64,000 nt of DNA from Thermoproteota archaeon (GTDB lineage: Archaea > Thermoproteota > Nitrososphaeria_A > Caldarchaeales > Calditenuaceae): assembly GCA_030550235.1 (NCBI GenBank), contig JAUQPU010000002.1, positions 231,164 to 295,163 on the forward strand, written 5' to 3'. Positions 5,885 through 58,724 of this stretch are shown here, piece after piece (the first letter of the stretch is position 1; each line of letters opens with the position of its first letter). The position numbers and the translations under genes were made by a program. Below the pieces are notes generated by a model. It saw only the letters and a list, made by a program, of their open reading frames with translations, made no database searches and was not told where the DNA came from.

Positions 5885-6894
5885 AGAAGATGTCTATCCA
5901 CATATATCAGTGCCCGAACTGCGGGGCCCCGTACAAAGTCAGAGAGGGGGACGTGGCGATAAAATGCAGTTACTGCAATACCGTCTTCAGAACATTCGAG
6001 GATGAAAAACGATTCATCATTCCAGTCTACTATGACAGTAGTCGGGCCATTGAAAACTTTCTTCTCTGGGTGAAAAAACAGACGGGCTATGAGGAGTCAC
6101 TTCCATTCAACATAAATCTTCTCGAGGTCAAACTGCATTTTTACCCATTCTGGGTTGTATCGCTTAATGCGAGGACAACCTTCACAGGAGTGGGGGAATA
6201 CGCGGAATTCAGTAACCCCGACTCAGGAGGCTATAGGAATATCAGAGTCATGACAAGAGAAGAATCTGGTAGTTTTGAGAGATTCTTCGAGCTTGTGCTA
6301 CCTGCTTCAAAAGATATCCCGTCAGAAGGTGAAGTCGTCGGCGTTTCAAGGATGAGAAAATTCTTCAGCCATGAATATGTCGAGCAGCAAGGTGGAGTTT
6401 TACACGGAGCCACAATTACGAGAGAGGATGCAAAAAGCATGGCCGAGCAGATAGCCGCAGCTGAGCTATCGAGACTTATCATGAGAGAAGTAGTGACAGT
6501 GAATACTCGAAACGATCAAATCCAGATCAAAGAGATCGCGCTCGTTTATATTCCGTTATGGCATGTGTCCTACGAGTTTAGGGGAGAGAAATATCGGGCA
6601 TTTATTGATGCCTCGTCGAGCAGGATTATCTACGCGTCTTATCCACCTGATATCGCTGAGAAGACGGCTTACTTGGGTGTTGCGGCTCTTCATGTAGTAC
6701 TAGGAGTTGTTTCAGCCTTTTTATTTTGGGGTTTTGGGTGGCTGCCAGTGGTCACCGTGTTCATCGGTTTTATTACAGCCGCTGTTGTTTATGCTTGGCG
6801 TGGTCTCTCTCCGACAAGGGCTAGAGAAATGGTTGATGAGAGAGACTTACTGAGGAAACAGGTCGAGACAGCAGCCAAGAAATGGTTGAGATAG
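5881..6894 (+). CDS. zinc-ribbon protein with C-terminal transmembrane region (paralog B)
   Basis: CPNCGAP...CSYCNT ribbon, a YPFWVVSLNA block, and the C-terminal TM AALHVVLGVVSAFLFWGFGWLPVVTVFIGFITAAVVY. Same architecture as the upstream gene. Confidence 0.6.
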   Translation: MKKMSIHIYQCPNCGAPYKVREGDVAIKCSYCNTVFRTFEDEKRFIIPVYYDSSRAIENFLLWVKKQTGYEESLPFNINLLEVKLHFYPFWVVSLNARTTFTGVGEYAEFSNPDSGGYRNIRVMTREESGSFERFFELVLPASKDIPSEGEVVGVSRMRKFFSHEYVEQQGGVLHGATITREDAKSMAEQIAAAELSRLIMREVVTVNTRNDQIQIKEIALVYIPLWHVSYEFRGEKYRAFIDASSSRIIYASYPPDIAEKTAYLGVAALHVVLGVVSAFLFWGFGWLPVVTVFIGFITAAVVYAWRGLSPTRAREMVDERDLLRKQVETAAKKWLR

Positions 6895-6937
6895 ACGGAG
6901 GTTTGAAGGAAACTATTATATTAGGGGATTCACAACG

Positions 6938-7483
6938 TTGGGCAAGATGAGCATAGAACGCGTCCGTAAAGAAATGGGACTCATGGAGAAAATCATGAGC
7001 TACATACCTGGATATAGGGGGTATAAGGAGAAGGAAATTAGAAGGGAGACAGACATTCTTGTGAGAAGAAAAATTAGCGGCATTCTCGCAGAGGCCCGGT
7101 CAATGCTAAACTCACCTCTGGGCCCGTCGGAGGCTAGAAAACTTGCCTATGATCAAGAGTCTAGGTTCGCTCTTGAAAATATTAGAACATCCCTCGACAA
7201 GGTGTCACAGCGGATAGATAAGGCCGTGGCTGGATATGCTGGGTTGTTTGACGCTGTCAAGATCCGGGAAGACAAGCTCGACGCCGTAATTAGTCATGAC
7301 CTTTCTCTGATTGAGAAGGCCGAGTCGATTAAGGCAATAGTTTCAGATCTTTTTTCGAAAAACATTGGGACTCCTGAGTGGAAAAACACGCTTACGGGCT
7401 TGATTTCAGCGGTTAGGGAGTTAGATCAGTTGATTGATGAGAGAATCGAGTTGCTGGAGGGTCTGAGCGAGGTGTCTGGCTGA
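6938..7483 (+). CDS. predicted all-helical coiled-coil protein, unknown function
   Basis: Helix-favouring composition throughout, with no TM segment. Its stop overlaps the ATG of the next gene (ATGA), suggesting translational coupling. Confidence 0.55.
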   Translation: MGKMSIERVRKEMGLMEKIMSYIPGYRGYKEKEIRRETDILVRRKISGILAEARSMLNSPLGPSEARKLAYDQESRFALENIRTSLDKVSQRIDKAVAGYAGLFDAVKIREDKLDAVISHDLSLIEKAESIKAIVSDLFSKNIGTPEWKNTLTGLISAVRELDQLIDERIELLEGLSEVSG

Positions 7484-8448
7484 TGCCTAAGGTCATTCAA
7501 TGGGTCGGGGCTAGAGAGGGAGACATAGTCTGGCGGTATCCTATAGACGAAATTGAGTGGGGGAGCAACTTAATTGTTGAGGAGTCACAGGCTGCTGTAT
7601 TTTTCCGAGATGGAAAAGCTTACGACGTGTTCAGGGCTGGTAGACATGTGATAACGACCGCAAATCTTCCACTTATCACAAAAGTTCTCTCAAGGATTGC
7701 GGGCTTTGACCGCGTACCCTTTAAGGCAATGGTTGTCTTTGTCTCTCTGAAACAGTTTCAAGGAAAGTTTGGGACACAGGGCCAGACAAGCGAGTTGGCT
7801 CCCCTTAAATTCTTTGGCAGCTTCTGGTTCAGAGTTGCTGAGCCCAACCTCTTCGTCCAAGAAGTGGTAGGCTCGCAGGGAACATATAGTACTGAGCAAA
7901 TGCAAGATTTCCTCAGGGCATATTTTAACGAGGCGCTAATCGACGAGTTGAGCCGGCACAGCATCGTCGAGGTTTACGGCAAACTCGATGAGACAAGCTT
8001 CCTTGCCAGAAATGTTGTCGGTCAGGCTTTCGTCAGGATTGGTCTGGAGTTGATTGATGTGAAGTTTGAAGGCCTTGACACCACGCCCGAGTGGAGGGAT
8101 AGAATCTTCTACCTGAGGCAGGGTGTTTCAGCAGCGGAGGTTCTTCGTATGCAGACAGTCGCTAAAACTGCTGAAGCTCTTTCCCAAAGCCAGGGCGCCG
8201 CTGTCGGAGCTGGTATCGCAGTCATACCTCCGCTTTTCCAGCAGCCTGTACAGCAGCCTCCCACTGTCGTGATCCTATGCCCCAGCTGTGGTTTCCAGAA
8301 CCCCCAGGGTGCAAAGTTCTGCAGTAACTGTGGAAAGCCCCTCGGCCCGCCACCCACGCCACAGCAACCAGCCAACAAGTGTCCAAACGGCCACGATGTT
8401 CCTCCAGGCTCTAAATTCTGCCCCGAATGCGGAGCCAAGCTATCATGA
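7483..8448 (+). CDS. SPFH/Band-7-like (Band_7_1-type) domain protein with C-terminal double zinc ribbon
   Basis: The N-terminal 230 aa resemble the PF13421 pattern (VIQWVG..DIVWRYP..SNLIVEESQAAVFFRDGK..AGRHVITTANLP..KFGTQGQ). Then a Q/P-rich linker and two ribbons, CPSCGFQNPQGAKFCSNCG and CPNGHDVPPGSKFCPECG. Confidence 0.65.
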   Translation: MPKVIQWVGAREGDIVWRYPIDEIEWGSNLIVEESQAAVFFRDGKAYDVFRAGRHVITTANLPLITKVLSRIAGFDRVPFKAMVVFVSLKQFQGKFGTQGQTSELAPLKFFGSFWFRVAEPNLFVQEVVGSQGTYSTEQMQDFLRAYFNEALIDELSRHSIVEVYGKLDETSFLARNVVGQAFVRIGLELIDVKFEGLDTTPEWRDRIFYLRQGVSAAEVLRMQTVAKTAEALSQSQGAAVGAGIAVIPPLFQQPVQQPPTVVILCPSCGFQNPQGAKFCSNCGKPLGPPPTPQQPANKCPNGHDVPPGSKFCPECGAKLS

Positions 8449-8762
8449 TCAGCTACGGGTCAGGAGCCCTAATCACCATAACATGCTCTCTAGGGATACT
8501 CCTTGTCCTAGGCGGAGCAGGGATAGTTCCAATCAACCTGCAGACAATAGCAGGCGTAGTGCTATCTATTTTCGGCATATACTCCATAGTATACAGCGTG
8601 TTTTCGAAAGATCTTTTCTACCACACACTTTGGGGTGGTGTATCAATAGCTATAGGAGCTGCATTACTTACCTCACCGGTAGTCAACCCAACCATAATGG
8701 TGGGAATAGCCCTCATTTTCATATCAATAGTAGGAGCTATAGCAGCACTTAAAAAAAGATAA
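8427..8762 (+). CDS. small membrane protein (3 predicted TM helices), last gene of the operon
   Basis: Hydrophobic 111-aa ORF overlapping the upstream gene's end by 22 nt. Confidence 0.5.
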   Translation: MRSQAIMISYGSGALITITCSLGILLVLGGAGIVPINLQTIAGVVLSIFGIYSIVYSVFSKDLFYHTLWGGVSIAIGAALLTSPVVNPTIMVGIALIFISIVGAIAALKKR

Positions 8763-8834
8763 TACAGATTCTCATCCGCGTTCGTCAACAACTTGTGATA
8801 TAGTGCATGAAGGCCCGGTAAAGAGTGTAGTTGT

Positions 8835-9366
8835 TCAAGTTATATCCAGCCGAGTCGTCGGAAGACCCAGAGCATTAGGATGGCTGTCCTCTATTGCCTC
8901 AAGCTCTTGCATAAGATTGTCCAGCATAGGGAACAAATCGTCCACCAACCTGTCCAATATTGTGTAAAGGATATAGGCCGGGCCTCTGCCCATAATGTCC
9001 TGTCGCCGGGCCGCATTGTCTCTGCACGTTTGGAAAAGCGCTGATAGGGGTTTTACATCTGACTGATTTACTGTGACGAGATAGTTTTTGCCGAGGAAGA
9101 CTCCTATCTGAGCCAATGTTATCGTGCTTCTATGGCTGTCGGTTTGGGGGAAAGTGTAGGATAGCGAATATGTGGTTAGGGTATACGTCGATTTTCGGGA
9201 GCTGGACTTTTGAGATGCAATCTTCAAGATTTAACATGCTGAAGGGGAAATGACGGCCCAGCATGTCCATCTCTCTCTGACTGGGCTTATTCACATTCAC
9301 CCAAACCACACCATCATGTCTCAGAAACTCTAAGCCGTCGAACTTCTCCACAACCCTAAACAGCAT
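8835..9366 (-). pseudogene. corA: frameshifted and 3'-truncated Mg2+ transporter CorA
   Basis: Two overlapping ORFs in different frames, 9130..9366 and 8835..9227, together match the CorA cytoplasmic domain (DGVVWVNVNKPSQREMDMLGRHF..LNLEDC..; ..KNYLVTVNQ..GPAYILYTILDRLVDDLFPMLDNL..LEAIED). The C-terminal TM helices and GMN motif are missing. Confidence 0.65.
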
Positions 9367-47613: not shown

Positions 47614-47839
47614 TCTCATAACTCAAGTCTCCTCAGCTCTGTTGCAATTATTATGCCGCGTCTCATCAAATATTACAGCAATGCTCGTGAAGTTATCTGG
47701 CACAGCAACATACAGTATGTCACGCGACACTTGATACGCTACAGGCATGCCAGGTAATTTTTGCATAAATTTTTTAATAAGTATGGGATTTTCCATGACA
47801 ATGGTCTGTCGCATATCTACGTTATGGAAGTATCGTGAC

Positions 47840-48844
47840 ATGAGGACATTAATTATAGAGAACTCACGCATACGGTTAGTTATACTATTAGATAAAGGGG
47901 CCGACATAATAGAACTGAGATATAAGCCATTGGATCTGGATCTCATGTGGCATTCACCAACCGGTTGGAGAAACCCGGTAATGGAGACCTCGCCTAACCC
48001 AAATAATATGGGAGGGTTCCTTGATTACTATGGAGGAGGATGGCAGGATATTGTGCCTTCCGCCGGTGGAGCAAGTGTAACACACAGGGGCGCAGCTCTT
48101 GGGATACATGGAGAATCTTCCATGCTTCCATGGAGCTGTGAAATTTTAGAGGACGGTGTGGAAGAAGTTTCCGCCCACCTATGGGTTGAAGGTGTCAGAT
48201 ACCCCTTTAGACTTGATAAGTGGATAGAGGTAAGACGGGATGAAGAGAAGCTCTACGTGAGGGAGAGACTCTCAAACCCTAGTAATCAGGCGCTTGAATA
48301 TTCGTGGCTTCAGCATCCCTCATTTGGGGAGCCATTCCTAGAGCCCAAATGTAAAATACGGATACCTACACCCGCAGAGGTTATAGTTTTGGAGGGGGAG
48401 CACCTCGGCAGACTCCAGCCAGGAACATATGAGTGGCCTACAGTCGCCGGAAAGGATGGCAAACCCATCGATTTGAGCATAATACCTTCCAGAGAGATTG
48501 TGGCTGAGGAGACTTCCTTCATAGCGAATATGAGAGAGGGATGGTACATACTTTCGAACCCCAAGCTAGACCTGGGGTTTGGACTCGCATGGGACATAGG
48601 TGTGTATAGGTACCTATGGTTCTGGCAGAACTACAATGCGCCTGATTATCCTTGGTATGGCACCGCATGGAATATCGCACTTGAACCTTGCACAAGCTAT
48701 CCCGGAGGCCTCCCAGCCCAGATACAGAGAAAAACGCACATAACCATCCCTCCAAAAGGGCACCTTGAGACCTCACTAACAGCATTCGTACTAAGCAACC
48801 CAGAGAAGATAGGCAAACTAGACGTCAGAGGCGAAAGCGAGTAG
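47840..48844 (+). CDS. galactose-mutarotase-fold (aldose-1-epimerase-like / DUF4432-like) protein; the ORF track starts it at 47747, but ATG at 47840 (MRTLIIEN) is more plausible
   Basis: LDLMWHSPTGW...GGGWQDIVPSAGG...HGESS...W pattern of mutarotase-like beta-sandwich enzymes. Followed by sugar oxidoreductases. Confidence 0.5.
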   Translation: MRTLIIENSRIRLVILLDKGADIIELRYKPLDLDLMWHSPTGWRNPVMETSPNPNNMGGFLDYYGGGWQDIVPSAGGASVTHRGAALGIHGESSMLPWSCEILEDGVEEVSAHLWVEGVRYPFRLDKWIEVRRDEEKLYVRERLSNPSNQALEYSWLQHPSFGEPFLEPKCKIRIPTPAEVIVLEGEHLGRLQPGTYEWPTVAGKDGKPIDLSIIPSREIVAEETSFIANMREGWYILSNPKLDLGFGLAWDIGVYRYLWFWQNYNAPDYPWYGTAWNIALEPCTSYPGGLPAQIQRKTHITIPPKGHLETSLTAFVLSNPEKIGKLDVRGESE

Positions 48845-48923
48845 CTTACATCAGTGTTCAACCCCGTATTTTAACAATATTGTGAGAACAAATATTATAT
48901 ACCGGTTTCCCAGATAGCCAGTT

Positions 48924-49955
48924 GTGGCGGCTAAAATTACTGTTGCAATATTGGGATACGGATTCATGGGCTCTACACACGCTGATGCTTGGCGCTTGAT
49001 TGATGGATGCGTTGTTAAAGGTGTTTGGGCGAGGGACAATTCAAAGACATCAAAGTTCGCATCAGAACGCGGAATCAAGGCTTATTCCTCATTTAGCGAT
49101 GTCTTGGACGACAAAGAAGTTGACGTAGTTGACATATGCACGCCAACATACACTCATGCCGAGTACGCCATACAGGCGTTGAAGTCTGGTAAGCACGTAA
49201 TAGTTGAGAAGCCCATGGCACTGAGCCTAGCAGATGCAGATAAAATGATTCATGCTGCGGATGAAAGCGGAATGAAGTTGATGGTGGCCCACGTTCTAAG
49301 GTTTTTCCCAGAATATATGAAGGTGAAGGAATTGGTAGACGAGGGTAAGCTCGGCGAGATATGCCAGGCTAGGGCTTTTAGAGGAGGCGCTTTTCCTGAA
49401 TGGAGCCCGTGGTTTGGTGAGGTTGAGAAGAGTGGGGGCGTGGCCGTTGATACTGCAATACACGATGTGGACTACATAACTTGGATTAGCTCAGGCATCC
49501 CCCAACGAGTATACGCAAAGATTAGGCGCGGAGCTAAAGAAGCCTCAGCTAAATATGAAATCGCCTTCATAAACGTGAGATATAAGAATGGAATGATAGC
49601 CTTCATTGAGGCAAGCTGGGCGCATCCACCCTCATTCCCCTTCACGATGAAGCTAGAGCTGGACGGCACCGAAGGAACGGTAACATTGGACAACCAGTCC
49701 CCAGTCCCTATCTCGCTATTCTCGCGAACTATAAGGCAAGGATATGCACCAGAGTCTCTACCTTGGAAGCCTATGGTGCATCCATTCCCGCTTGACCCAT
49801 TCTACCGCGAGCTATCACATTTTGTAGACTGCGTTAGAAACGACAAGACACCAATGACAGACGGGAGAGCGTCGCGGAGAAGCTTGGAGGTGTGCCTCGC
49901 GAGCGTGAAATCTGCAGAGACAGGTAGGCCAGTTGAGCTACCATTCGTGGGGTGA
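48924..49955 (+). CDS. Gfo/Idh/MocA-family NAD(P)-dependent oxidoreductase (paralog 1)
   Basis: N-terminal Rossmann ILGYGFMGSTHA and the EKP motif (VIVEKPMA). Confidence 0.8.
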   Translation: MAAKITVAILGYGFMGSTHADAWRLIDGCVVKGVWARDNSKTSKFASERGIKAYSSFSDVLDDKEVDVVDICTPTYTHAEYAIQALKSGKHVIVEKPMALSLADADKMIHAADESGMKLMVAHVLRFFPEYMKVKELVDEGKLGEICQARAFRGGAFPEWSPWFGEVEKSGGVAVDTAIHDVDYITWISSGIPQRVYAKIRRGAKEASAKYEIAFINVRYKNGMIAFIEASWAHPPSFPFTMKLELDGTEGTVTLDNQSPVPISLFSRTIRQGYAPESLPWKPMVHPFPLDPFYRELSHFVDCVRNDKTPMTDGRASRRSLEVCLASVKSAETGRPVELPFVG

Positions 49956-50967
49956 GGAAATGGGCAGCCTATTTAAAGTTGGATTTTTAGGGGTAGCGCA
50001 TTTCCACGCTGACAGCTACGCGAGAGCACTTAGAAAACTGCCAGACACTGAGATAGTAGGTGCCTTTGATGACGACACATCCCTTGGTAAGAAATTCTGT
50101 GAGGACTTCAAGACAGAATACTACAGAAGCGCCTCGCAGCTACTCGATAAAGAATTGGATGCAGTCATAATAACATCTGAGAACTTTAAACACTATGAAT
50201 GCATAATACAGGCCTTGGATAAGGGCTTAAACATTCTGTGCGAAAAACCCATGACCACAAATCTGCGCGACGCTGAAGATGTAGTGGCTCGGGTAGAGAA
50301 ACAGAAGGTTGTGTTTCAGATGTGCTATGTCATGAGATATCATACAGTATCCTCGCTTGTAAAAGAGCTCATAGACTCGGGGGGCGTTGGAAAGCTGATC
50401 TCACTAGTTGGCACGAATAAGCTTAACAGGTCTCTACCCCTGCTTAGGAGGTGGTTTACTGACCCAAGACTATCTGGGGGCGGCGCTGTGATGGACCACA
50501 CAGTCCATCTAGCTGACCTGATGAGATGGTATACGGGCGATGAGGTGGATGAAGTCTATACCGAGATAGGGAAAAAAGTGAATAACAGCCTCATGGTGGA
50601 GGACAACTTCTTCACAACTATTCGTTTTAGGGGGGATGTGATAGGACACATTGACGGGAGTTGGACATATGCCTCAGGCCTCTATACGTGGGGTGACGTG
50701 AGGATGGAGATTGTGGGTACCGACGGCGCCTTATTCATGGACGCTTTTCGGCAAAACGTGTACTATATAGGAGACAGGCAGCCAAACGATAAATTATCCT
50801 GGAGCTACTATGGGTGCGATCCTGACCTAGCAATGATAACGGATTTTAAGAAGTGTGTACAGGAGAATAAACAGCCCAGAGCAACTGTAAAAGACGGCTA
50901 CGAGGGCGTTAGGATCTCACTCGCCAGCTATGAATCCAGCAGACGCGGGGCCCCTGTAAAGCCTTAA
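49933..50967 (+). CDS. Gfo/Idh/MocA-family oxidoreductase (paralog 2)
   Basis: VGFLGVAHFHADSYA Rossmann and ILCEKPMT. Confidence 0.8.
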   Translation: MSYHSWGEEMGSLFKVGFLGVAHFHADSYARALRKLPDTEIVGAFDDDTSLGKKFCEDFKTEYYRSASQLLDKELDAVIITSENFKHYECIIQALDKGLNILCEKPMTTNLRDAEDVVARVEKQKVVFQMCYVMRYHTVSSLVKELIDSGGVGKLISLVGTNKLNRSLPLLRRWFTDPRLSGGGAVMDHTVHLADLMRWYTGDEVDEVYTEIGKKVNNSLMVEDNFFTTIRFRGDVIGHIDGSWTYASGLYTWGDVRMEIVGTDGALFMDAFRQNVYYIGDRQPNDKLSWSYYGCDPDLAMITDFKKCVQENKQPRATVKDGYEGVRISLASYESSRRGAPVKP

Positions 50968-51025
50968 CTAGGCTCAAAAACCCTAACGAATGAGACAATA
51001 GACGTTCCCCAGCCTAGCCCCATGG

Positions 51026-51790
51026 CTATTTTGTTACGCGACTTATCTCTTCCGTAAGTGCGTTCACGAATAAGTTGAAAAGTTTCTCTCCCTTCTCCCT
51101 ACTTGCGAGTGTAGCATCTCCACATACGCCCGTCTTAAAATCACGACCAAGGAATCTCGAAGTAGTCAATATTCTAATGGCCTCGTTAAAGTTAGCAGTG
51201 GTCATGCCGCGGGGGATGAAATCCGGCACCTCCTTGACAGCCTTGCTCATATCCACTAGGTCAGGCCTCAGGAAGAGCATTAAACTCGTCTCCAACTCCT
51301 CCGCATGTATGAATATCTCCTCCTCAAGAATAGATGATAGAGTCTCCATACTAACTACCGTATATGGTGAGATATTATGTACTGTCATGCCGTGTAGATC
51401 ATGTGATGTATTAAGCCACTGTGTAACTGCAAACAAGTGGTAGATATGCCCAGCGTGCCCGGAAACAAGCACGAGGTGTTTAACACCATATTTTGAGACG
51501 CCCACCGCTATATCTCTGACCAATCTAACCAATGTTGATGGTCTAAGTGATATTGTACCCACCATTGGCAAATGGTCGTCTGAATAACCATAAGGTATGA
51601 GTGGTAAGACAGCAGCGTTTATCCTCTTAGCAACTTCCTTACAAAGCTCCCAAGCTATTATATGGTCAGTTCCGAGGGGTAGGTGTGGACCATGTTGCTC
51701 AGTACTACCAATGGGAAGCAAAGCAACCTTAGTCTGCTTGGTCAGCTCTGATAACTGCGTTGTAGATTTTTCAGCCCATAGCAGGGTCAT
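51026..51790 (-). CDS. creatininase-family amidohydrolase
   Basis: LLPIGSTEQHGPHLPLGTD and VLVSGHAGH metal-binding motifs. Length 254 aa. Confidence 0.75.
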   Translation of the reverse strand: MTLLWAEKSTTQLSELTKQTKVALLPIGSTEQHGPHLPLGTDHIIAWELCKEVAKRINAAVLPLIPYGYSDDHLPMVGTISLRPSTLVRLVRDIAVGVSKYGVKHLVLVSGHAGHIYHLFAVTQWLNTSHDLHGMTVHNISPYTVVSMETLSSILEEEIFIHAEELETSLMLFLRPDLVDMSKAVKEVPDFIPRGMTTANFNEAIRILTTSRFLGRDFKTGVCGDATLASREKGEKLFNLFVNALTEEISRVTK

Positions 51791-51918
51791 GCCTCTATCA
51801 AGCGTGCGAGTTATTTAAAAATTTTAGAAACATTGAAAGAAGAGCTCCATATCGCTCTTATTACCAACTTTGGCTAAATTTTTAAATACACCTCACTGAC
51901 CACACTTTTTGACGATAT

Positions 51919-53013
51919 ATGTCACGAAAATTGGGTGTATTAGTTCACGGCGCGGGCTGGGTCTCTACACAGCACATAGAAGCATATAAAAACAATCCAC
52001 ATACACGAGTAGTGGCTATCTCGAGTAGAAGGCTAGAGAGTGCTAGAAAGAGAGCAGAGGAGGCGGGTCTTCACGACGTCAAACTATATGACGATTATCA
52101 TAAGGCACTTGAAAATCCTGATGTTGATATAGTGTCTATTTGTACTCCCCAGCATCTCCATGCTCAAAACACCATAGATGCCGCAAAAGCCGGTAAGCAT
52201 ATGTTGATTGAGAAGCCGATAGCCAACTCGGTGGAGGAGATGAAAGCAATGAGAGATGCGGTCCGTAAAGCTAAAGTGAAGACGGTGGTTAGCTTTGTTT
52301 TAAGATGGAACCCATTATTTGAGGCGATAAAGATTCTGATATCGAGTGGATTCTTGGGGAAGATATACTACGTAGAAACCGACTATCAGAGTGCTATTGC
52401 TGCGTGGTGGTCTGGATATGAAGATGCACGAAAGAAAGAAACGGGGGTGAGCGCGTTCCTAGTTGGCGGCTGTCATGCCATAGATGCTATGAGGTGGTTT
52501 GCTAGTGAGGAGAGGTATGGAGCAGCAAAACCTATCGAGGTTTTCGCATACTCAGGAGGGCTTAGAAAAGGGAAGATAAGACAATGGAACTACTATAAAC
52601 AGAGATGGGAGGATATGCCACCCCTCGAATATGATGACCTGGAGGTCGCATTAGTAAAGTTCGATAATGGTGTTATTGGTAAAGTCTCGGTCAACTTCGG
52701 CGGTGTCCAACCGTACACATTCCCAATCGAGATATTTGGCGATCACGGCACTATAAAGGATAACAGGCTATGGTCAGCGAAGTTTGAGGGCAACCAGAAG
52801 GGGTGGATAACAATCCCCACAATATTGCCAGATAGCGCCGAGGTGACCCATCATCCATTCCAGCAAGAAATCGACCACTTTGTAGACTGCATCCTGAACG
52901 ATAGGGAGTCTCACTGTAATCTGGAGGACGCCATCAGAACGCATGAGGTAGCATTTGCGGCCCTTAAATGTTATGAGACTGGGAGGCCAGTTAGGCTGCC
53001 GCTGCTTGAGTAA
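51919..53013 (+). CDS. Gfo/Idh/MocA-family oxidoreductase (paralog 3)
   Basis: LVHGAGWVSTQH Rossmann and LIEKPIA. Confidence 0.8.
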   Translation: MSRKLGVLVHGAGWVSTQHIEAYKNNPHTRVVAISSRRLESARKRAEEAGLHDVKLYDDYHKALENPDVDIVSICTPQHLHAQNTIDAAKAGKHMLIEKPIANSVEEMKAMRDAVRKAKVKTVVSFVLRWNPLFEAIKILISSGFLGKIYYVETDYQSAIAAWWSGYEDARKKETGVSAFLVGGCHAIDAMRWFASEERYGAAKPIEVFAYSGGLRKGKIRQWNYYKQRWEDMPPLEYDDLEVALVKFDNGVIGKVSVNFGGVQPYTFPIEIFGDHGTIKDNRLWSAKFEGNQKGWITIPTILPDSAEVTHHPFQQEIDHFVDCILNDRESHCNLEDAIRTHEVAFAALKCYETGRPVRLPLLE

Positions 53014-53052: not shown

Positions 53053-54144
53053 ATGGCTAAGCTTGAACTTGTCGGCCTCTATAAGAGATTTGGCGCTCAG
53101 GAGGCAGTTAAGAACCTCACACTAGTTGTTGAAGATGGGAAGATGGCTTGTCTACTAGGCCCCTCGGGCTGTGGGAAGACCACCACTTTAAGAATGGTGG
53201 CTGGCCTCGAGAAGCCTGATTCTGGAGACATCTACATCGGGGGTAAGAGAGTTAACGACCTCCCCCCATACGAGCGCAACATATCCATGGTATTCCAATT
53301 CTATGCTATCTATCCTGGAATGACAGTTTATGATAACCTGGCATTCCCCCTGAAGCAGAAAAAGATCCCGAAGGATGAGATAGATAGGCGTGTGAAAGAG
53401 ATTGCAGAAATATTGAGGATTAACCATATTCTAAAGGAGGATGCGATAAGGCTGCCTGCCGGAGAAAAACAGAGAATCGCTCTGGGAAGGGCCCTGATCA
53501 AGGAGCCTGAAATACTCCTACTTGACGAGCCTTTAACGAACCTTGATGCGCGGCTTAGGGCCGTTATGCGTAAAGAAATTAAGAGATTGCACCTCAAGCT
53601 GAAGACCACCACCTTATACGTCACCCACGACCAAATCGAGGCGATGACTATGGCGGACGTGATAGGAGTGATGAATCTAGGAGTATTGCAGCAATATGGT
53701 CCACCGCACGAGCTATATAACAAGCCCGCCAACATGTTTGTCGCAGGTTTCTTGGGAACCCCTCCTATGAACTTTCTGGACTTCTCCTATATAGTAAATG
53801 GAAAGAAATATTTTGATTTTGGCGAATTCAAGATCACGGACCCAGAGCTGTTAAACATGCTCCCATCTACGCTTGAGTCAAACGAGCTAGTACTAGGGAT
53901 AAGGCCTAAAGATGTCATAATCAGTTTTAACACTGAAGAATCCGACTCATACGGCTGGGAGATAAAGGTTGTGGAGCCTGTCGGGGACAAATATATCGTC
54001 TTTATGAGTCTTGGAGATAAATCCATAAGAGTGGTGGTCCCGGCGATAGAGCGGGGAATCGAAGTGGGAAAGAAGGTGGGCATAAGATTCAGGAAGGAGA
54101 CCATCCACATATTCGACAGGAAGACGGGAAATGCTATATTATAG
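53053..54144 (+). CDS. sugar ABC transporter ATP-binding protein (MalK/UgpC-type with C-terminal TOBE domain), NBD 1
   Basis: Walker A GPSGCGKTT, Walker B LLLDEPLTNLD, H-loop YVTHDQ. The signature is degenerate (LPAGEKQR in place of LSGGQ). Confidence 0.85.
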   Translation: MAKLELVGLYKRFGAQEAVKNLTLVVEDGKMACLLGPSGCGKTTTLRMVAGLEKPDSGDIYIGGKRVNDLPPYERNISMVFQFYAIYPGMTVYDNLAFPLKQKKIPKDEIDRRVKEIAEILRINHILKEDAIRLPAGEKQRIALGRALIKEPEILLLDEPLTNLDARLRAVMRKEIKRLHLKLKTTTLYVTHDQIEAMTMADVIGVMNLGVLQQYGPPHELYNKPANMFVAGFLGTPPMNFLDFSYIVNGKKYFDFGEFKITDPELLNMLPSTLESNELVLGIRPKDVIISFNTEESDSYGWEIKVVEPVGDKYIVFMSLGDKSIRVVVPAIERGIEVGKKVGIRFRKETIHIFDRKTGNAIL

Positions 54145-54165
54145 AATGATAGAGGGTATGGCGTT

Positions 54166-55254
54166 ATGGTAAGTGTCAGGTTGGAAAACGTCACTAAAAT
54201 AGTAGGGGGTAGACCGCTAGTTGACGACCTAACGCTCGACATAAAATCGGGTGAGCTCGTCGCCCTTTTCGGACCGCCGGGCTCAGGCAAGACTACAGTC
54301 CTTAGATTAATAGCTGGACTTGACACAGTCACTAGTGGAAAAATCTACATTGATGAACAGCTGGTCAACGATCTCAGCCCTGCCAGGAGGGAGGTGGGGA
54401 TGGTTTTCCAGAGCTTTGCATTATACCCTACCTACACGGTTTTCGACAACTTGGCATTCCCTCTAAGAAAGAAAGGGCTATCCCAGTCAGAGATAAAGAA
54501 TAGGGTAGAGGGTGTAGCTCAAAAGCTTGGCATAAGTCACCTACTGCAGAAGAAGCCTGCATTTCTAAGTGGCGGAGAGAAGCAGAGAGTTGCTATTGGT
54601 CGCGCGATAGTAAAGGAGCCGAAAGTCCTTCTAATGGATGAGCCCTTAACAAATCTTGACGCTAAGTTAAGGATACTAGTTAGGACCGAGATTAGAAGGC
54701 TTCAGCAGGAGCTTGGAATAACAACGATAGTAAGCACACCAGATGATCAAGAGGCACTATCTATAGCTGATAAGATAGCAGTCATGCGTCAAGGTAAGCT
54801 CATACAATACGCTGACACGCCCACAATCTATAATAAACCCTCGCACCTCTTCGTAGCCCAGAACATCGGGACCCCCCAGATAAACATAATTGAGGCAAAG
54901 TTGCTGACAGATGGTCAAACACCCCTTCTTGACCTAAAATTCACAAAGGTCAGAATACCTGAGAGTAGTCTAAACCTGAAGGAATATGTTGGAAAAGACG
55001 TTCTCGTCGGATTGAGACCGAGCGAGATAAGAGTGAGTAAGAATCCCTTGGGAGTCGAGCAGGTTAAGGTTAGAGTAGAGTTTATAGAACCTCTGGGGGC
55101 CGAATCTATTGTAACCCTATCAGCTGGGGAAGAGAGCTTAACAGCTGTAGTTCCCCCTGGCACACCCTTAGAGATTGGAGAAGAAGCCTATATGGAACTT
55201 GAAGGTGCTACTTTACACGTCTTCGACAAAGAGTCGGGCTTAGCCATAGTCTAG
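54166..55254 (+). CDS. second MalK-type ABC ATP-binding protein, NBD 2, with degenerate H-loop
   Basis: Walker A GPPGSGKTT, signature LSGGEKQR, Walker B LLMDEPLTNLD. The H-loop position reads VSTPDDQ, lacking the histidine. Confidence 0.8.
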   Translation: MVSVRLENVTKIVGGRPLVDDLTLDIKSGELVALFGPPGSGKTTVLRLIAGLDTVTSGKIYIDEQLVNDLSPARREVGMVFQSFALYPTYTVFDNLAFPLRKKGLSQSEIKNRVEGVAQKLGISHLLQKKPAFLSGGEKQRVAIGRAIVKEPKVLLMDEPLTNLDAKLRILVRTEIRRLQQELGITTIVSTPDDQEALSIADKIAVMRQGKLIQYADTPTIYNKPSHLFVAQNIGTPQINIIEAKLLTDGQTPLLDLKFTKVRIPESSLNLKEYVGKDVLVGLRPSEIRVSKNPLGVEQVKVRVEFIEPLGAESIVTLSAGEESLTAVVPPGTPLEIGEEAYMELEGATLHVFDKESGLAIV

Positions 55255-55297: not shown

Positions 55298-56188
55298 TTA
55301 CTTTACCGCCCCAGCTACCAATCCGCTTATGAGGTATCTACGGAATATGGCGATCACGACTAGCGCGGGTAGCATTGCCACGACGCCACCCGCCATCAAT
55401 ATTCCTACGGGCTTGTATGGCTGGGCGGCCATGAAGCCGACGATTACAGGCATAGTCCTTGAGAGCTGCGTCTGAGTCACCATAAAGGCGAAGAAGAACT
55501 CACCCCAAGAGACCATAAACGATATAATACCGACCGCGACGATTCCAGGAGTGATAACAGGCAAAACAACTCTAAACAACGTCTCAAAACGCCCATATCC
55601 ATCAACTCTAGCAGCATCCTCAATATCAGCAGGGACAGTACTCAGATATGTGTTCAATATCCATATGTTTAATGGAATAGTGAAGGCGGCGTGAACCAGT
55701 ATGACAGCGATAAGAGTATCGTAGAGCTTTAAACCGAAGAAGTTTTGTATTATAATATAGTAAGGTACCACGATTGCAACCGGAGGAATTAGACGACCAG
55801 CAATAGACATGTAGAAGAGGAGTTGGCTTCCGGGGAACCGTATCCTGGTGTATGCATATGATGCGAGTGTTGCTGCAAACACGTTTATCGCTATAACCAC
55901 GAGGCCTATTATCACACTATTCGCTAAAGCGTTTGGAAACCATCTCGCAACGGCGGGTAGGAAGGTGAGCCTACCGCTCTCTTGTAATCTAGCTTCAATT
56001 GCACTGCTTGTATCGAATATGAACCAGTAATTGAAGTAGACGGGATTGTGGGGGATAATTGTAGGTGGCGCTGAATGTATCTCAGGCTCCGACTGCAGAC
56101 TTAAGTCAAGCATCCAAAGTATCGGCAATAATACCCAGCAGGCAACGACTATCGAGGCGAGCAGGATGCCGATTTTCTTTCTATCCAT
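55298..56188 (-). CDS. carbohydrate ABC transporter permease (MalG/UgpE-like)
   Basis: Six TM helices and EAA-type loop DIEDAARVDGYGRFETLFRVVLP. Confidence 0.8.
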   Translation of the reverse strand: MDRKKIGILLASIVVACWVLLPILWMLDLSLQSEPEIHSAPPTIIPHNPVYFNYWFIFDTSSAIEARLQESGRLTFLPAVARWFPNALANSVIIGLVVIAINVFAATLASYAYTRIRFPGSQLLFYMSIAGRLIPPVAIVVPYYIIIQNFFGLKLYDTLIAVILVHAAFTIPLNIWILNTYLSTVPADIEDAARVDGYGRFETLFRVVLPVITPGIVAVGIISFMVSWGEFFFAFMVTQTQLSRTMPVIVGFMAAQPYKPVGILMAGGVVAMLPALVVIAIFRRYLISGLVAGAVK

Positions 56189-56205: not shown

Positions 56206-57093
56206 CTAAGCCCTCAGCCTCAACCTACCTATCCTCAGCGCCCTGAAATAGGCTATAATCAGCCCTATACTCACAAGAACGACCATAAACGATAATGCAG
56301 AGGCCCTGCCGAAGTTTAGGAATGTGAACATCTCGCTGAACGTGTAATATGATATCACCGCTGTGAAGTTTCCAGGACCACCTGCGGTAATTACATACAC
56401 TATATCGAATGTCCAGAGGGCCATTAGGGTGGTATAAACCGCCACGATGAGCATGAACGGTTTAAGCCAGGTGAATGTTATCGACTTAAACCTTGACCAT
56501 TCCCTTGCACCATCTATTAATGCGGCTTCGTAGAGCTCCTGAGGAATTGACTGTATACCAGCTAGGAAGAGGAGCGTGGGTAGCGGCAGCTGAACCCAGA
56601 GAAACGCCAATACTAGGATCAGCATCGCAGGCCACTTTAGGCTGAGCCACGGTATGTAGGAGTCGATAACGCCTAGCCCCTTTAATGCGGCGTTGAAGAT
56701 TCCGTAGTTTGCGTCGAAAATCCACTTCCACACGGCTGAACTTACAACTAGTGGTATTGCCCATGGGACTAGGACTAGCCATTGCAGGAATCCTACGCCT
56801 CTAAACTTCTGGGAAAGGAGGAGAGCTAAGCCAAGCGAGATTAATACTGTTAAAGGAACAGATATCACTGCGAAGATGACTGTAGCTAGTACAGAGTCGG
56901 TAAAGTAATAGGAATTGATGACTTGGATGAAGTTGTCGAAGCCTATGAATCTTATCTCTTCAGGATACTTCAGGTCATACCTCTGTGTACTAACATAAAT
57001 TGCATAGCCTATTGGGTAGAATGTAAACGGTAGGACAAATAAGAGTGAGGGTATTAGCGCTAAAATAATAAATCGTATGTCTTCTTTAAGCAA
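56206..57093 (-). CDS. carbohydrate ABC transporter permease (MalF/UgpA-like)
   Basis: EAA loop YEAALIDGAREWSRFKSITFTWLKP. Six TM helices. Confidence 0.8.
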   Translation of the reverse strand: MLKEDIRFIILALIPSLLFVLPFTFYPIGYAIYVSTQRYDLKYPEEIRFIGFDNFIQVINSYYFTDSVLATVIFAVISVPLTVLISLGLALLLSQKFRGVGFLQWLVLVPWAIPLVVSSAVWKWIFDANYGIFNAALKGLGVIDSYIPWLSLKWPAMLILVLAFLWVQLPLPTLLFLAGIQSIPQELYEAALIDGAREWSRFKSITFTWLKPFMLIVAVYTTLMALWTFDIVYVITAGGPGNFTAVISYYTFSEMFTFLNFGRASALSFMVVLVSIGLIIAYFRALRIGRLRLRA

Positions 57094-57119: not shown

Positions 57120-58724
57120 CTATTTGCCGGTCTTCGACTCTCGCTTCATCCTATTCCATTCTTCAGCCAACCTGTTGAGAACCGCTAAGATGTCATCATC
57201 ACTCAGTCCCCTGTTGCCTAGTATCAGGTCGTGAATTAGTGGCCTCGCAACTCCTGCCTGCCAGTATCCCCACCATTCAGACCACCATGTGGTCATTCTC
57301 GGATCGTTGAAGAAGTCGTATCCCTTAAACAGCACTTGCCTTTTAACCTCTGGATCAACCCAGCTCTTGACCGACTCTCTTATATCGGCGTATTTTGGAT
57401 CCTCCCACATGCTTATATATATTGGGCCTACCCCCTTCTCATTATTTAGTCGTCTACAGACGAAGTACTCGCCGTTTTCAAAGTCTGGCCTCCCATTTTT
57501 AGTCCTACCGCCTACGAATTGCAGTACGCGCCAAGTAGCCTCGAGGGTGTTTCGGCCTTGCTCTAGAGTCTTCCTAGAGACTTGGTAAGTTCTGTAGATT
57601 GTTGAGACGCGGCCGCTGCCGGGTGCCACAGCCATTCTGAGGTTCCCCGCCTCTTTTGAGGGTGGTGTATTAGCAAATGCTAGGTCATAGTCTGGCATCC
57701 AGAAGAATGTGTGGGCGCCTGAGCCAAAGGCGTTAACGGCCTGTGCCTCGTCGTATAGGACGCCCTTGGTTGAGGCTAGCTTCTCCTTGTGTATCATGTC
57801 GAGCTGCCATCTGAGGCTCTGGAACCAGGGAGACTTCTTGTCGTTGAAGATGGGGTTCAAATCCTCATCCCACATGAACGGGCCTTCCTGATCAGTCATA
57901 CCTAGCATGAAGCAGTATGTGCCCACCTCCACAAATCCCCAGCTGCCATACCATATTCCGATTGGGTCGTCATTCACTCCCTTCTGTTTGATTAGTCTAG
58001 CCTGCTCCTCTAGGTCCTCCCAAGTCTTCGGCGGCTCGTCGATTCCAGCCTCCTGTAGATGTCTCGCATTATACATGAAGGCTTGTGCTCCGCCATAATA
58101 GAACAGGCCAGTTACCTTTCCAGTGTCTGGGTTAATGAGACCTTTTCTGAACCCTGGGAATACGTCGTCTAGGTATCTCCTAATCTCTGGGAAGTAATCT
58201 TCCATATCGATGAGCCATCCGTTCTGTTGGTAGATGTATGTGACGTCTGGTGTGCTATAGTGAATGTTGGGTGGGTTGCCTGCAGTGTATGCTGCGCTGA
58301 GCCCTGAGAAGAATGTGTCCAGCCCATAGTCAACTACTTGTAGGTCTATGTCTGGATTATATTGATTAAATATTCTGGCGTTGTCTTGAACTAGCTCTAC
58401 ACCCCAGCTCCATATGCCCCACGTCACAGGTACCTTCTGGCCTACTGGTCCCGTGGTTGTTTGTGCGGTAGTTGTTACTTGTTGGGTAACGGTCTGCGTC
58501 ACTACCCTTGTCACTGTCTGGGGCGTTTGTTGCGCGCCTGAAGACCCGGCCAGATATCCGCCAACAGCGCCGATTACGACTCCTGCCGCGACACCAACAG
58601 CCAGTTTCCCAGCAGATGAGAGGGCTGCACGCCTTGTCACGGTCTTATCTAGTGGATTTCGCAAAAGCACATCTTTTTCATCCTCTTTATGGGGTTTGGT
58701 TTTGGACTTCCTAGTACCTGGCAT
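57120..58724 (-). CDS. extracellular sugar-binding protein (family 1 SBP) with N-terminal TM anchor and Thr-rich linker
   Basis: Anchor LAVGVAAGVVIGAVGGYLAG, a TVTRVVTQTVTQQVTTTAQTTTGP linker, then a ~440-aa SBP-like domain rich in W/Y. Confidence 0.7.
   Translation of the reverse strand: MPGTRKSKTKPHKEDEKDVLLRNPLDKTVTRRAALSSAGKLAVGVAAGVVIGAVGGYLAGSSGAQQTPQTVTRVVTQTVTQQVTTTAQTTTGPVGQKVPVTWGIWSWGVELVQDNARIFNQYNPDIDLQVVDYGLDTFFSGLSAAYTAGNPPNIHYSTPDVTYIYQQNGWLIDMEDYFPEIRRYLDDVFPGFRKGLINPDTGKVTGLFYYGGAQAFMYNARHLQEAGIDEPPKTWEDLEEQARLIKQKGVNDDPIGIWYGSWGFVEVGTYCFMLGMTDQEGPFMWDEDLNPIFNDKKSPWFQSLRWQLDMIHKEKLASTKGVLYDEAQAVNAFGSGAHTFFWMPDYDLAFANTPPSKEAGNLRMAVAPGSGRVSTIYRTYQVSRKTLEQGRNTLEATWRVLQFVGGRTKNGRPDFENGEYFVCRRLNNEKGVGPIYISMWEDPKYADIRESVKSWVDPEVKRQVLFKGYDFFNDPRMTTWWSEWWGYWQAGVARPLIHDLILGNRGLSDDDILAVLNRLAEEWNRMKRESKTGK

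Follow-up and report, generated by a model that had tools for sequence, protein, structure and literature searches.

Two MalK-type ATPase genes accompany one importer

This work concerns a pair of ATPase genes in a 64,000-nucleotide stretch of contig JAUQPU010000002.1 (positions 231,164 to 295,163; assembly GCA_030550235.1) of a Thermoproteota archaeon. We refer to the whole 64-kb stretch as the window and, unless another locus is named, give coordinates within it. On the plus strand lie the genes for a MalK/GlpT-like ATPase of 363 amino acids (aa) (53053..54144) and a MalK/GlpS-like ATPase of 362 aa (54166..55254), GlpS and GlpT being the ATPases of a rhizobial glycerol transporter discussed below. 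We call the two proteins NBD1 and NBD2, for nucleotide-binding domain (NBD). Both open reading frames were found exactly where a preliminary description of this DNA had placed them, and the proteins are 41% identical over their full length. NBD1 has an intact P-loop side and a degenerate signature; NBD2 has an intact signature and a degenerate P-loop side. A stop codon and a 21-nucleotide (nt) spacer (54145..54165, plus strand) keep the two genes apart. Within this short spacer a Shine-Dalgarno-like element, GAGGG(T), precedes the NBD2 ATG by about 10 nt, so the two genes are likely cotranscribed.

Both ATPases show the domain order ABC_tran (PF00005), OB_MalK (PF17912), TOBE_2 (PF08402), each domain scoring above its Pfam cut-off. 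Their closest NCBIfam models are UgpC, MalK and archaeal GlcV, with scores below the curated cut-offs: against UgpC (cut-off 432) NBD1 scored 385.9 and NBD2 348.0, and the MalK and GlcV scores of both proteins likewise fell short.

Tail-to-tail with NBD2, on the minus strand, is the gene for a 296-aa permease (permease B, 55298..56188) that resembles MalG, GlcU and GlpQ. It is followed on the same strand by the genes for a 295-aa permease resembling UgpA, GlcT and GlpP (permease A, 56206..57093) and for a 534-aa substrate-binding protein with an SBP_bac_1 domain (57120..58724). The permeases were recognized by their BPD_transp_1 domains and NCBIfam similarities; permease B is 31% identical to GlpQ and permease A is 28% identical to GlpP. 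The N terminus of the binding protein (58400-58724, minus strand) has a charged leader, a twin-arginine-like TRRAALSS motif and a hydrophobic stretch, after which comes a Thr/Val/Gln-rich low-complexity linker (TVTRVVTQTVTQQVTTTAQTTT). Such an anchor and linker are as expected of an archaeal surface-tethered binding protein.

The transporter inventory of the window thus comprises one permease pair, one binding protein, NBD1 and NBD2. A phmmer search of every open reading frame in the 64 kb found no further NBD, permease or binding protein of the CUT1-like type. NBD2 (P0001) is on record in 32 contigs, and the synteny around the NBD pair was identical in the 6 NCBI assemblies that we read.

NBD1 and NBD2 carry complementary defects

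We placed the motifs by residue-by-residue alignment to solved MalK-type chains, 2d62 and 1g29 for NBD1 and 7x0q and 1v43 for NBD2. The alignments (E values of 1e-90 to 1e-106) are gap-free across the catalytic core, and therefore every motif position is fixed.

NBD1 has the Walker A motif GPSGCGKTT (aa 36-44; 53158..53184), the Walker B motif ILLLDEP and the H-loop VTHDQ with His192 (53620..53634). Its Q-loop reads VFQFYAIYP (53290..53316), in which the Phe after Gln is a class marker common to GlpT, and its D-loop is LTNLDA (53533-53550). Opposite the LSGGQ signature of MalK stands LPAGE (aa 134-138; 53452..53466), and no substitute SGG is present in the protein.

NBD2 has an LSGGE signature (54565..54579), the Walker B motif VLLMDEP and the D-loop LTNLDA (54646-54663). 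The Glu at the fifth signature position is not a defect, since 35% of fully canonical relatives carry it there. The H-loop reads STPDD (54733..54747), with Pro192 in place of the catalytic histidine; reading the sequence directly, we found no substitute histidine within about 30 residues. The Walker A motif GPPGSGKTT (54271..54297) retains the GxxxxGK[ST] pattern, so nucleotide binding is probably retained, and the Walker A lysine is kept in both NBDs. In the A-loop region KIVG (54196..54207) NBD2 has Val13, where MalK has Trp13 and NBD1 has Phe13. All these motifs lie on the plus strand.

The preliminary description had read NBD1 as having intact Walker motifs, a VTHDQ H-loop and a noncanonical LPAGE signature, and NBD2 as having an LSGGE signature and an STPDD sequence without the H-loop histidine. 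Both readings agree with the alignments, and neither the H-loop nor the signature lies elsewhere in a way that would make both sites canonical. The loss of the A-loop aromatic residue is an additional defect, absent from that description. Neither protein combines LSGG[QE] with the H-loop histidine, the canonical motif set within one protein.

A proposed heterodimer with one catalytic site

The subunits of an ATP-binding cassette (ABC) dimer are arranged head to tail: the signature of each NBD lies across from its partner's A-loop, Walker A and B motifs, Q-loop and H-loop. Given this geometry, Val13 and Pro192 of NBD2 and LPAGE of NBD1 fall into one composite site. The preliminary description had assigned its two defects to that site (NBD2 Walker A plus NBD1 signature), and our motif mapping leads to the same placement.

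We propose, with a probability of roughly 0.75, that NBD1 and NBD2 are the two ATPase subunits of one type I (CUT1-like) importer, in which they would form a heterodimer with one catalytic site. That the two form an asymmetric pair, as first suggested, is strongly supported by co-occurrence, complementary conservation and purifying selection (see below). Our data establish the gene content, the motif states, how these are conserved and that they occur together in one locus; from them we infer the physical heterodimer itself, a degenerate site that binds ATP without hydrolyzing it, and the stoichiometry.

The adjacent permease pair and the 534-aa binding protein would complete the importer, the binding protein handing substrate to the permease heterodimer and NBD1 and NBD2 dimerizing around two ATP molecules. 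Phe13, Walker A, Walker B Glu159 and His192 of NBD1 would join LSGGE of NBD2 in a complete consensus site, which would hydrolyze ATP and reset the pump. The degenerate site would be made up of Val13, Walker A and Pro192 of NBD2 together with LPAGE of NBD1. It would probably bind ATP, because the Walker A lysine and the Walker B residues are kept. It would hydrolyze ATP poorly or not at all, because the residues that hold the gamma-phosphate in place, the histidine and the Ser and Gly of the signature, are missing from it. By analogy with heterodimeric ABC exporters, it might then act as a nucleotide-dependent hinge or regulatory site, and a transport cycle would consume about one ATP.

Relatives of NBD1 and NBD2 form two classes under different constraint

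Homologue searches with NBD1 and NBD2 separately led to two families, not two accidents. We pooled 513 relatives from several sources and sorted them by motif state. In the signature-degenerate class (n = 146), Walker A GPSGCGKTT is conserved at 97 to 100% per position and THDQ at 100%; Phe follows the Q-loop Gln in 92% of the class, whereas canonical relatives have Ser or Asn there. The signature of these proteins drifts, taking the forms L[TS][AVEP]GE, LTVGE, LTAGE, LTPGE, LHPSE, LAIEE, LNTEE, LSVDV and others. The class without the H-loop histidine (His-less; n = 160) has LSGG in 100% and Pro at the histidine position in 92%. Positions 3 to 5 of its Walker A motif are variable, with GxxxxGK[ST] kept, and its A-loop and H-loop vary. 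No variation in LSGG, Walker B or the D-loop is seen among relatives down to about 44% identity. A pattern of this kind would be expected if catalysis constrained only one of the two composite sites.

The A-loop residue is V, L, I, Y or F among close NBD2 relatives and always F or Y among NBD1 relatives. We asked whether an A-loop without its aromatic residue might characterize the whole His-less class, and rejected this: F or Y occupies the position in 86% of the class, and the position is relaxed only among close NBD2 relatives and in partners that retain the histidine.

The D-loop LTNLDA is common to both classes (Thr in 73 to 76% of each), as against LSNLDA in canonical relatives (Ser in 90%). 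Because D-loops meet at the dimer interface, the shared form may reflect coadaptation of the subunits; shared ancestry may also explain it.

We built a neighbor-joining tree with the motif columns masked. All of the 10 nearest relatives of NBD1 in this tree are signature degenerate. The classes cluster, but they do not form clean, monophyletic clades and the placement of GlpS is ambiguous; we therefore claim no single origin. A profile search of 1.84 billion representative proteins was not specific and gives no estimate of family size; His-less proteins made up about 14 of its best 150 matches.

Could NBD2 simply be a decaying duplicate of NBD1, an incipient pseudogene whose motif pattern has no functional meaning? 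Compared with the orthologous pair at locus L208, the nonsynonymous divergence (pN) was 0.084 for NBD1 and 0.147 for NBD2, with a synonymous divergence (pS) of 0.77 to 0.78; we give pN and pS in place of dN/dS, as synonymous sites are saturated (pS > 0.75). NBD2 thus changes about 1.75 times faster than NBD1 at nonsynonymous sites, as decay would have it. Its reading frame is intact, however, and its pN/pS is about 0.19 with these saturated synonymous sites. Both genes are clearly under purifying selection by this comparison, NBD2 under a somewhat relaxed form of it, and this speaks against decay. So do the invariance of LSGG, Walker B and the D-loop noted above and the presence of the pair in many phyla. 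We give the pseudogene explanation hardly any weight and retain the view that NBD2 is a working partner of NBD1.

The two ATPase types occur together in single loci

We scanned metagenomes with a DNA pattern for DEPL[TS]NLDA, 24 residues and T[PA]D..E, which within the window matches NBD2 only. The scan returned at least 120 loci. A second MalK-type gene with an intact histidine and a degenerate signature is present in at least 40 of them. Among the matches listed, this partner is directly adjacent in 21 cases (in either order) and lies 2.5 to 3.8 kb downstream on the same strand in 19. Also among the matches listed, every His-less gene with at least 5 kb of downstream sequence (20/20) has a signature-degenerate, His-intact partner in its locus, and the apparent His-less singletons are all on short flanks. 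We also proceeded in reverse from 6 signature-degenerate genes. All 6 have a partner with intact LSGGE; 4 of these partners are without the histidine, and the other 2 keep it but are without the A-loop aromatic residue, one of them also having a G-to-A change at the first Walker A position.

Orthologous loci in relatives carry two NBD genes as well. The pair is present, with synteny as in the window, in a second Nitrososphaerota species and in archaeon HR01, and it recurs in metagenome-assembled genomes (MAGs) of Methanomethylicaceae and Bathyarchaeia. In an alphaproteobacterial MAG (L085) the order is NBD2-like gene, binding protein, permease, permease, NBD1-like gene, which leaves the two NBD genes about 3.3 kb apart.

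As a control we used 80 MalK loci from reference genomes. They came from a contig profile scan with an NBD2-like alignment that was steered by generic Walker B and Q-loop patterns and reached canonical bacterial MalK loci only. A single MalK-type gene is present in 74 of the 80, and 81 of their 86 MalK-type genes have canonical motifs. Since the controls are mostly single canonical genes, whereas a partner was found for 20/20 of the His-less genes with at least 5 kb of downstream sequence among the matches listed, the complementary pattern goes beyond chance; it is conserved, not accidental.

These loci also bear on whether NBD1 and NBD2 might form separate homodimers, one driving the window transporter and the other serving as a shared, MsiK-like ATPase or as a noncatalytic regulator. 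Homodimers are the norm for MalK-type ATPases, and in some bacteria several transporters draw on the same one (PMC4519317); our permease survey, moreover, covered the 64-kb window. A homodimer of NBD1 would, however, have two bad signatures, and one of NBD2 two sites without histidine. Either homodimer would thus have two defective sites, and only the heterodimer would have one complete site. The two types also occur in single operons across distant lineages, in three different gene orders and with complementary defects, and one protein appears to be a natural fusion of them. This is P0241 (588 aa, from the representative search), in which a GlpS-like NBD with LSGGQ, ATTDP and no C-terminal domain precedes a GlpT-like NBD with VFQFPVVY, a degenerate signature and VTHDQ. 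P0241 looks like a GlpS-like::GlpT-like fusion, although its sequence could alternatively be an artifact of gene calling or a frameshift. If real, it would be Rosetta-stone support for the heterodimer. We regard separate homodimers as quite improbable and continue with the heterodimer of NBD1 and NBD2.

Several loci have unusual arrangements. At L218:6001-11065, genes for an IS240-family transposase and an FGGY kinase lie between the NBD1-like and NBD2-like genes, further transposase genes flank the binding-protein gene, and the cluster is disrupted or rearranged. Three genes, L106:520-1578, L155:2073-3188 and L177:2237-3355, encode a small, distinct class of MalK-like proteins with both defects in one polypeptide (LSAGH plus VTAD[ST]); no partner was visible in their short flanks, and as homodimers these proteins would have no intact site.

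Candidate intermediates suggest an order of decay

Three Chloroflexi loci (L037, L050 and L053, from Herpetosiphon and Anaerolineales; about 6870-9060) have adjacent MalK-type genes that both keep the H-loop histidine. The NBD1-like member has the signature LSGGD and the Q-loop VFQF[YF]AL; its partner has LSGGE and keeps THDQ. From their motifs, these are candidate heterodimeric importers with two near-consensus sites, possibly a precursor state. At L213:5268-7462 and L215:4895-7092, an NBD1-like gene with an LTAGE or LTPGE signature is accompanied by a partner that keeps the histidine (ATHDE). Both partners have Thr at the A-loop position, and the Walker A motif of the L215 partner is APSGSGKST. 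In the window and most other loci, both defects are found together.

Among the loci compared, no His-less gene has a partner with an intact signature, except at L095. Since intermediates with a degenerate signature and a kept histidine exist, and the reverse was seen only at L095, this modest and partly biased sample suggests that signature decay came first, followed by relaxation of the facing P-loop-side elements. The series appears to run stepwise from a heterodimer with two near-consensus sites, through decay of one signature, to degeneration of the A-loop, Walker A and H-loop opposite it.

Relation to known transporters

The rhizobial glycerol ABC transporter, a two-ATPase system, prompted us to retrieve the glp region of plasmid pRL9 of Rhizobium johnstonii 3841. 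It holds glpR, glpD, genes for two ATPases and two permeases, a DUF2160 gene, a gene for a 574-aa binding protein, and glpK. The gene list printed in PMC11223650, glpR-D-S-T-P-Q-V-K, matches this order, and for the GlpSTPQV glycerol transporter of Rhizobium leguminosarum PMC11962113 cites Ding et al. 2012 (PMID 22343359).

We aligned GlpS and GlpT with MalK and the window proteins. GlpT is like NBD1, with a VFQFPVIYD Q-loop, a degenerate LTADQ signature and VTHDQ, and GlpS is like NBD2, with an intact LSGGQ, the histidine-free H-loop ATTEP and Val at the A-loop position. GlpT also scores better against NBD1 than against NBD2, and with motif columns masked 8 of its 10 nearest neighbors are in the NBD1-like class. 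GlpSTPQV and the window system are thus each one CUT1-like transporter with two distinct MalK-type ATPase genes, and each has an unusually long binding protein (574 and 534 aa). Because GlpS and GlpT show the complementary degeneracy, the two-ATPase architecture was already present in a genetically characterized bacterial system.

The systems differ in other respects. Identities between them are 33 to 38% for the ATPases and 28 to 31% for the permeases, gene order differs, and the window system is archaeal. The window has no homologue of GlpV or DUF2160 (phmmer, E <= 1), and no glpD or glpK lies near its transporter, unlike GlpSTPQV. Orthology of the two systems is not established. A tblastn search of plasmids with an alphaproteobacterial-type NBD2-like protein gave nothing above 45% identity and no annotated orthologue.

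Canonical MalK proteins (E. coli MalFGK2; Thermococcus litoralis 1g29; Pyrococcus horikoshii 1v43 and 2d62; SugC; MsmX) have the same fold and domain order as NBD1 and NBD2 and the same types of partner, BPD_transp_1 permeases and an SBP_bac_1 binding protein. They are, however, encoded by one gene and form homodimers with two identical consensus sites, whereas the window has two paralogues with complementary defects. The preliminary description had called the pair unusual for a MalK-type importer. Measured against canonical MalK this is correct; as an architecture the pair is neither unique nor new, as GlpSTPQV has the same pattern.

We also compared the pair with the heterodimeric exporters TM287/288, TmrAB, BmrCD, PatAB, TAP1/2, CFTR, MRP1 and SUR, in which one NBD is without the H-loop histidine and the other has a degenerate signature, both defects falling in a single composite site (PMC3971661). 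These exporters have fused transmembrane and nucleotide-binding domains and the type IV fold, whereas the window system is a type I importer with separate NBD subunits and a binding protein. Their degenerate sites are often without the Walker B glutamate, which NBD2 retains. Among importers, the sugar and nucleoside CUT2 ATPases RbsA and NupO, classed as type II, have one degenerate ATP site according to sequence analysis (PMC11466899). Unlike the window proteins, each of them joins two NBDs in a single polypeptide, has lost the lysine of the second Walker A motif and has no MalK-type regulatory domain.

A search for solved structures of either subunit type found only canonical MalK-type chains. 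The literature that we searched discusses consensus and degenerate sites for exporters and fused CUT2 ATPases (PMC3971661, PMC11466899), and in it we found no description of a degenerate site in MalK-type, CUT1 or GlpST systems. The two-ATPase architecture is already known, then, and it is the family-wide single-site asymmetry that appears to be undescribed in that literature.

Arguments for and against a single catalytic site

A heterodimer of NBD1 and NBD2 might also hydrolyze ATP at both sites, using two ATP per cycle and tolerating Pro for His and LPAGE as variants. In NBD2 the Lys of Walker A, the Asp-Glu of Walker B and the Gln of the Q-loop are all present, and the H-loop Pro, itself conserved in 92% of its class, could be a selected alternative chemistry and not decay. 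We nevertheless think this unlikely. The signature drifts in NBD1-like proteins, as expected of a motif that is no longer catalytic, and all deviations gather in one site. Replacement of the H-loop histidine in MalK, HisP and HlyB nearly abolishes ATPase activity. A heterodimer with one catalytic site is the reading that we prefer.

Several observations weigh against that reading. Because NBD2 keeps, besides the residues just named, its D-loop, residual hydrolysis at the degenerate site is possible; the retained Walker B glutamate is the chief caveat. Both the heterodimer and the loss of hydrolysis are drawn from the comparison of sequences. Orphan permease pairs served by one of the two NBDs would lie outside the 64 kb surveyed. 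The neighbor-joining tree has no clean class clades; a common origin with GlpS/GlpT is suggested by it but unproven. Two cases, finally, break the pattern. The two adjacent MalK-type genes at L095:3056-5247 have one and the same sequence between residues 45 and 310, approximately, and diverge only in their N- and C-terminal parts; their Walker A motifs are GPPGAGKTT and GPSGCGKTT, and both have LSGGE and ATPDQ. This mosaic points to an assembly chimera or to conversion of one tandem paralogue by the other. The protein P0196 combines LTAGE and ATPDQ and may be a similar hybrid.

Substrate hints and significance

Beside the transporter genes (47747-53013, plus strand; 51026-51790, minus strand) lie genes for a DUF4432 protein, three Gfo/Idh/MocA oxidoreductases and a creatininase-family protein. 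Inositol 2-dehydrogenase, IolG, is the best match of the oxidoreductases, and 3-dehydro-scyllo-inosose hydrolase, IolN, a weaker one of the creatininase-family protein; all these matches score under the curated cut-offs. This block of neighbors, which is conserved in archaeon HR01 and in the second Nitrososphaerota species, may be a catabolic cluster for a cyclitol or polyol. It is a weak hint, taken from gene content, that the transporter substrate could be such a compound; the substrate is probably not glycerol.

We class the window system as a new archaeal representative of the GlpS/GlpT-type two-ATPase importers and, more broadly, of the ABC transporters with one degenerate site. It might belong to a large unrecognized class of MalK-type importers, spread over several archaeal phyla and Bacteria and including GlpSTPQV, with obligate one-site NBD heterodimers; we put this forward tentatively, the odds being somewhat against it. 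Genes of this kind currently go by the generic labels "ABC transporter ATP-binding protein", UgpC or SugC, and neither subunit would be active alone.

MalK-type importers are symmetric homodimers in the textbook account, with which a natural asymmetric motor contrasts. Experiments on one-site versions of MalK and HisP reportedly gave conflicting answers. Work on an engineered one-site histidine transporter, a homodimeric importer, is among that cited in PMC3971661. If our proposal is true, nature would offer one-site versions of the best-studied importer family, suited to testing the need for ATP per cycle. An asymmetric MalK-type motor in both thermophilic archaea and tractable rhizobia (GlpST) would be a ready-made test system, in which one could address how many ATP a transport cycle takes, which permease each NBD couples to, and what role the nonhydrolytic site plays.

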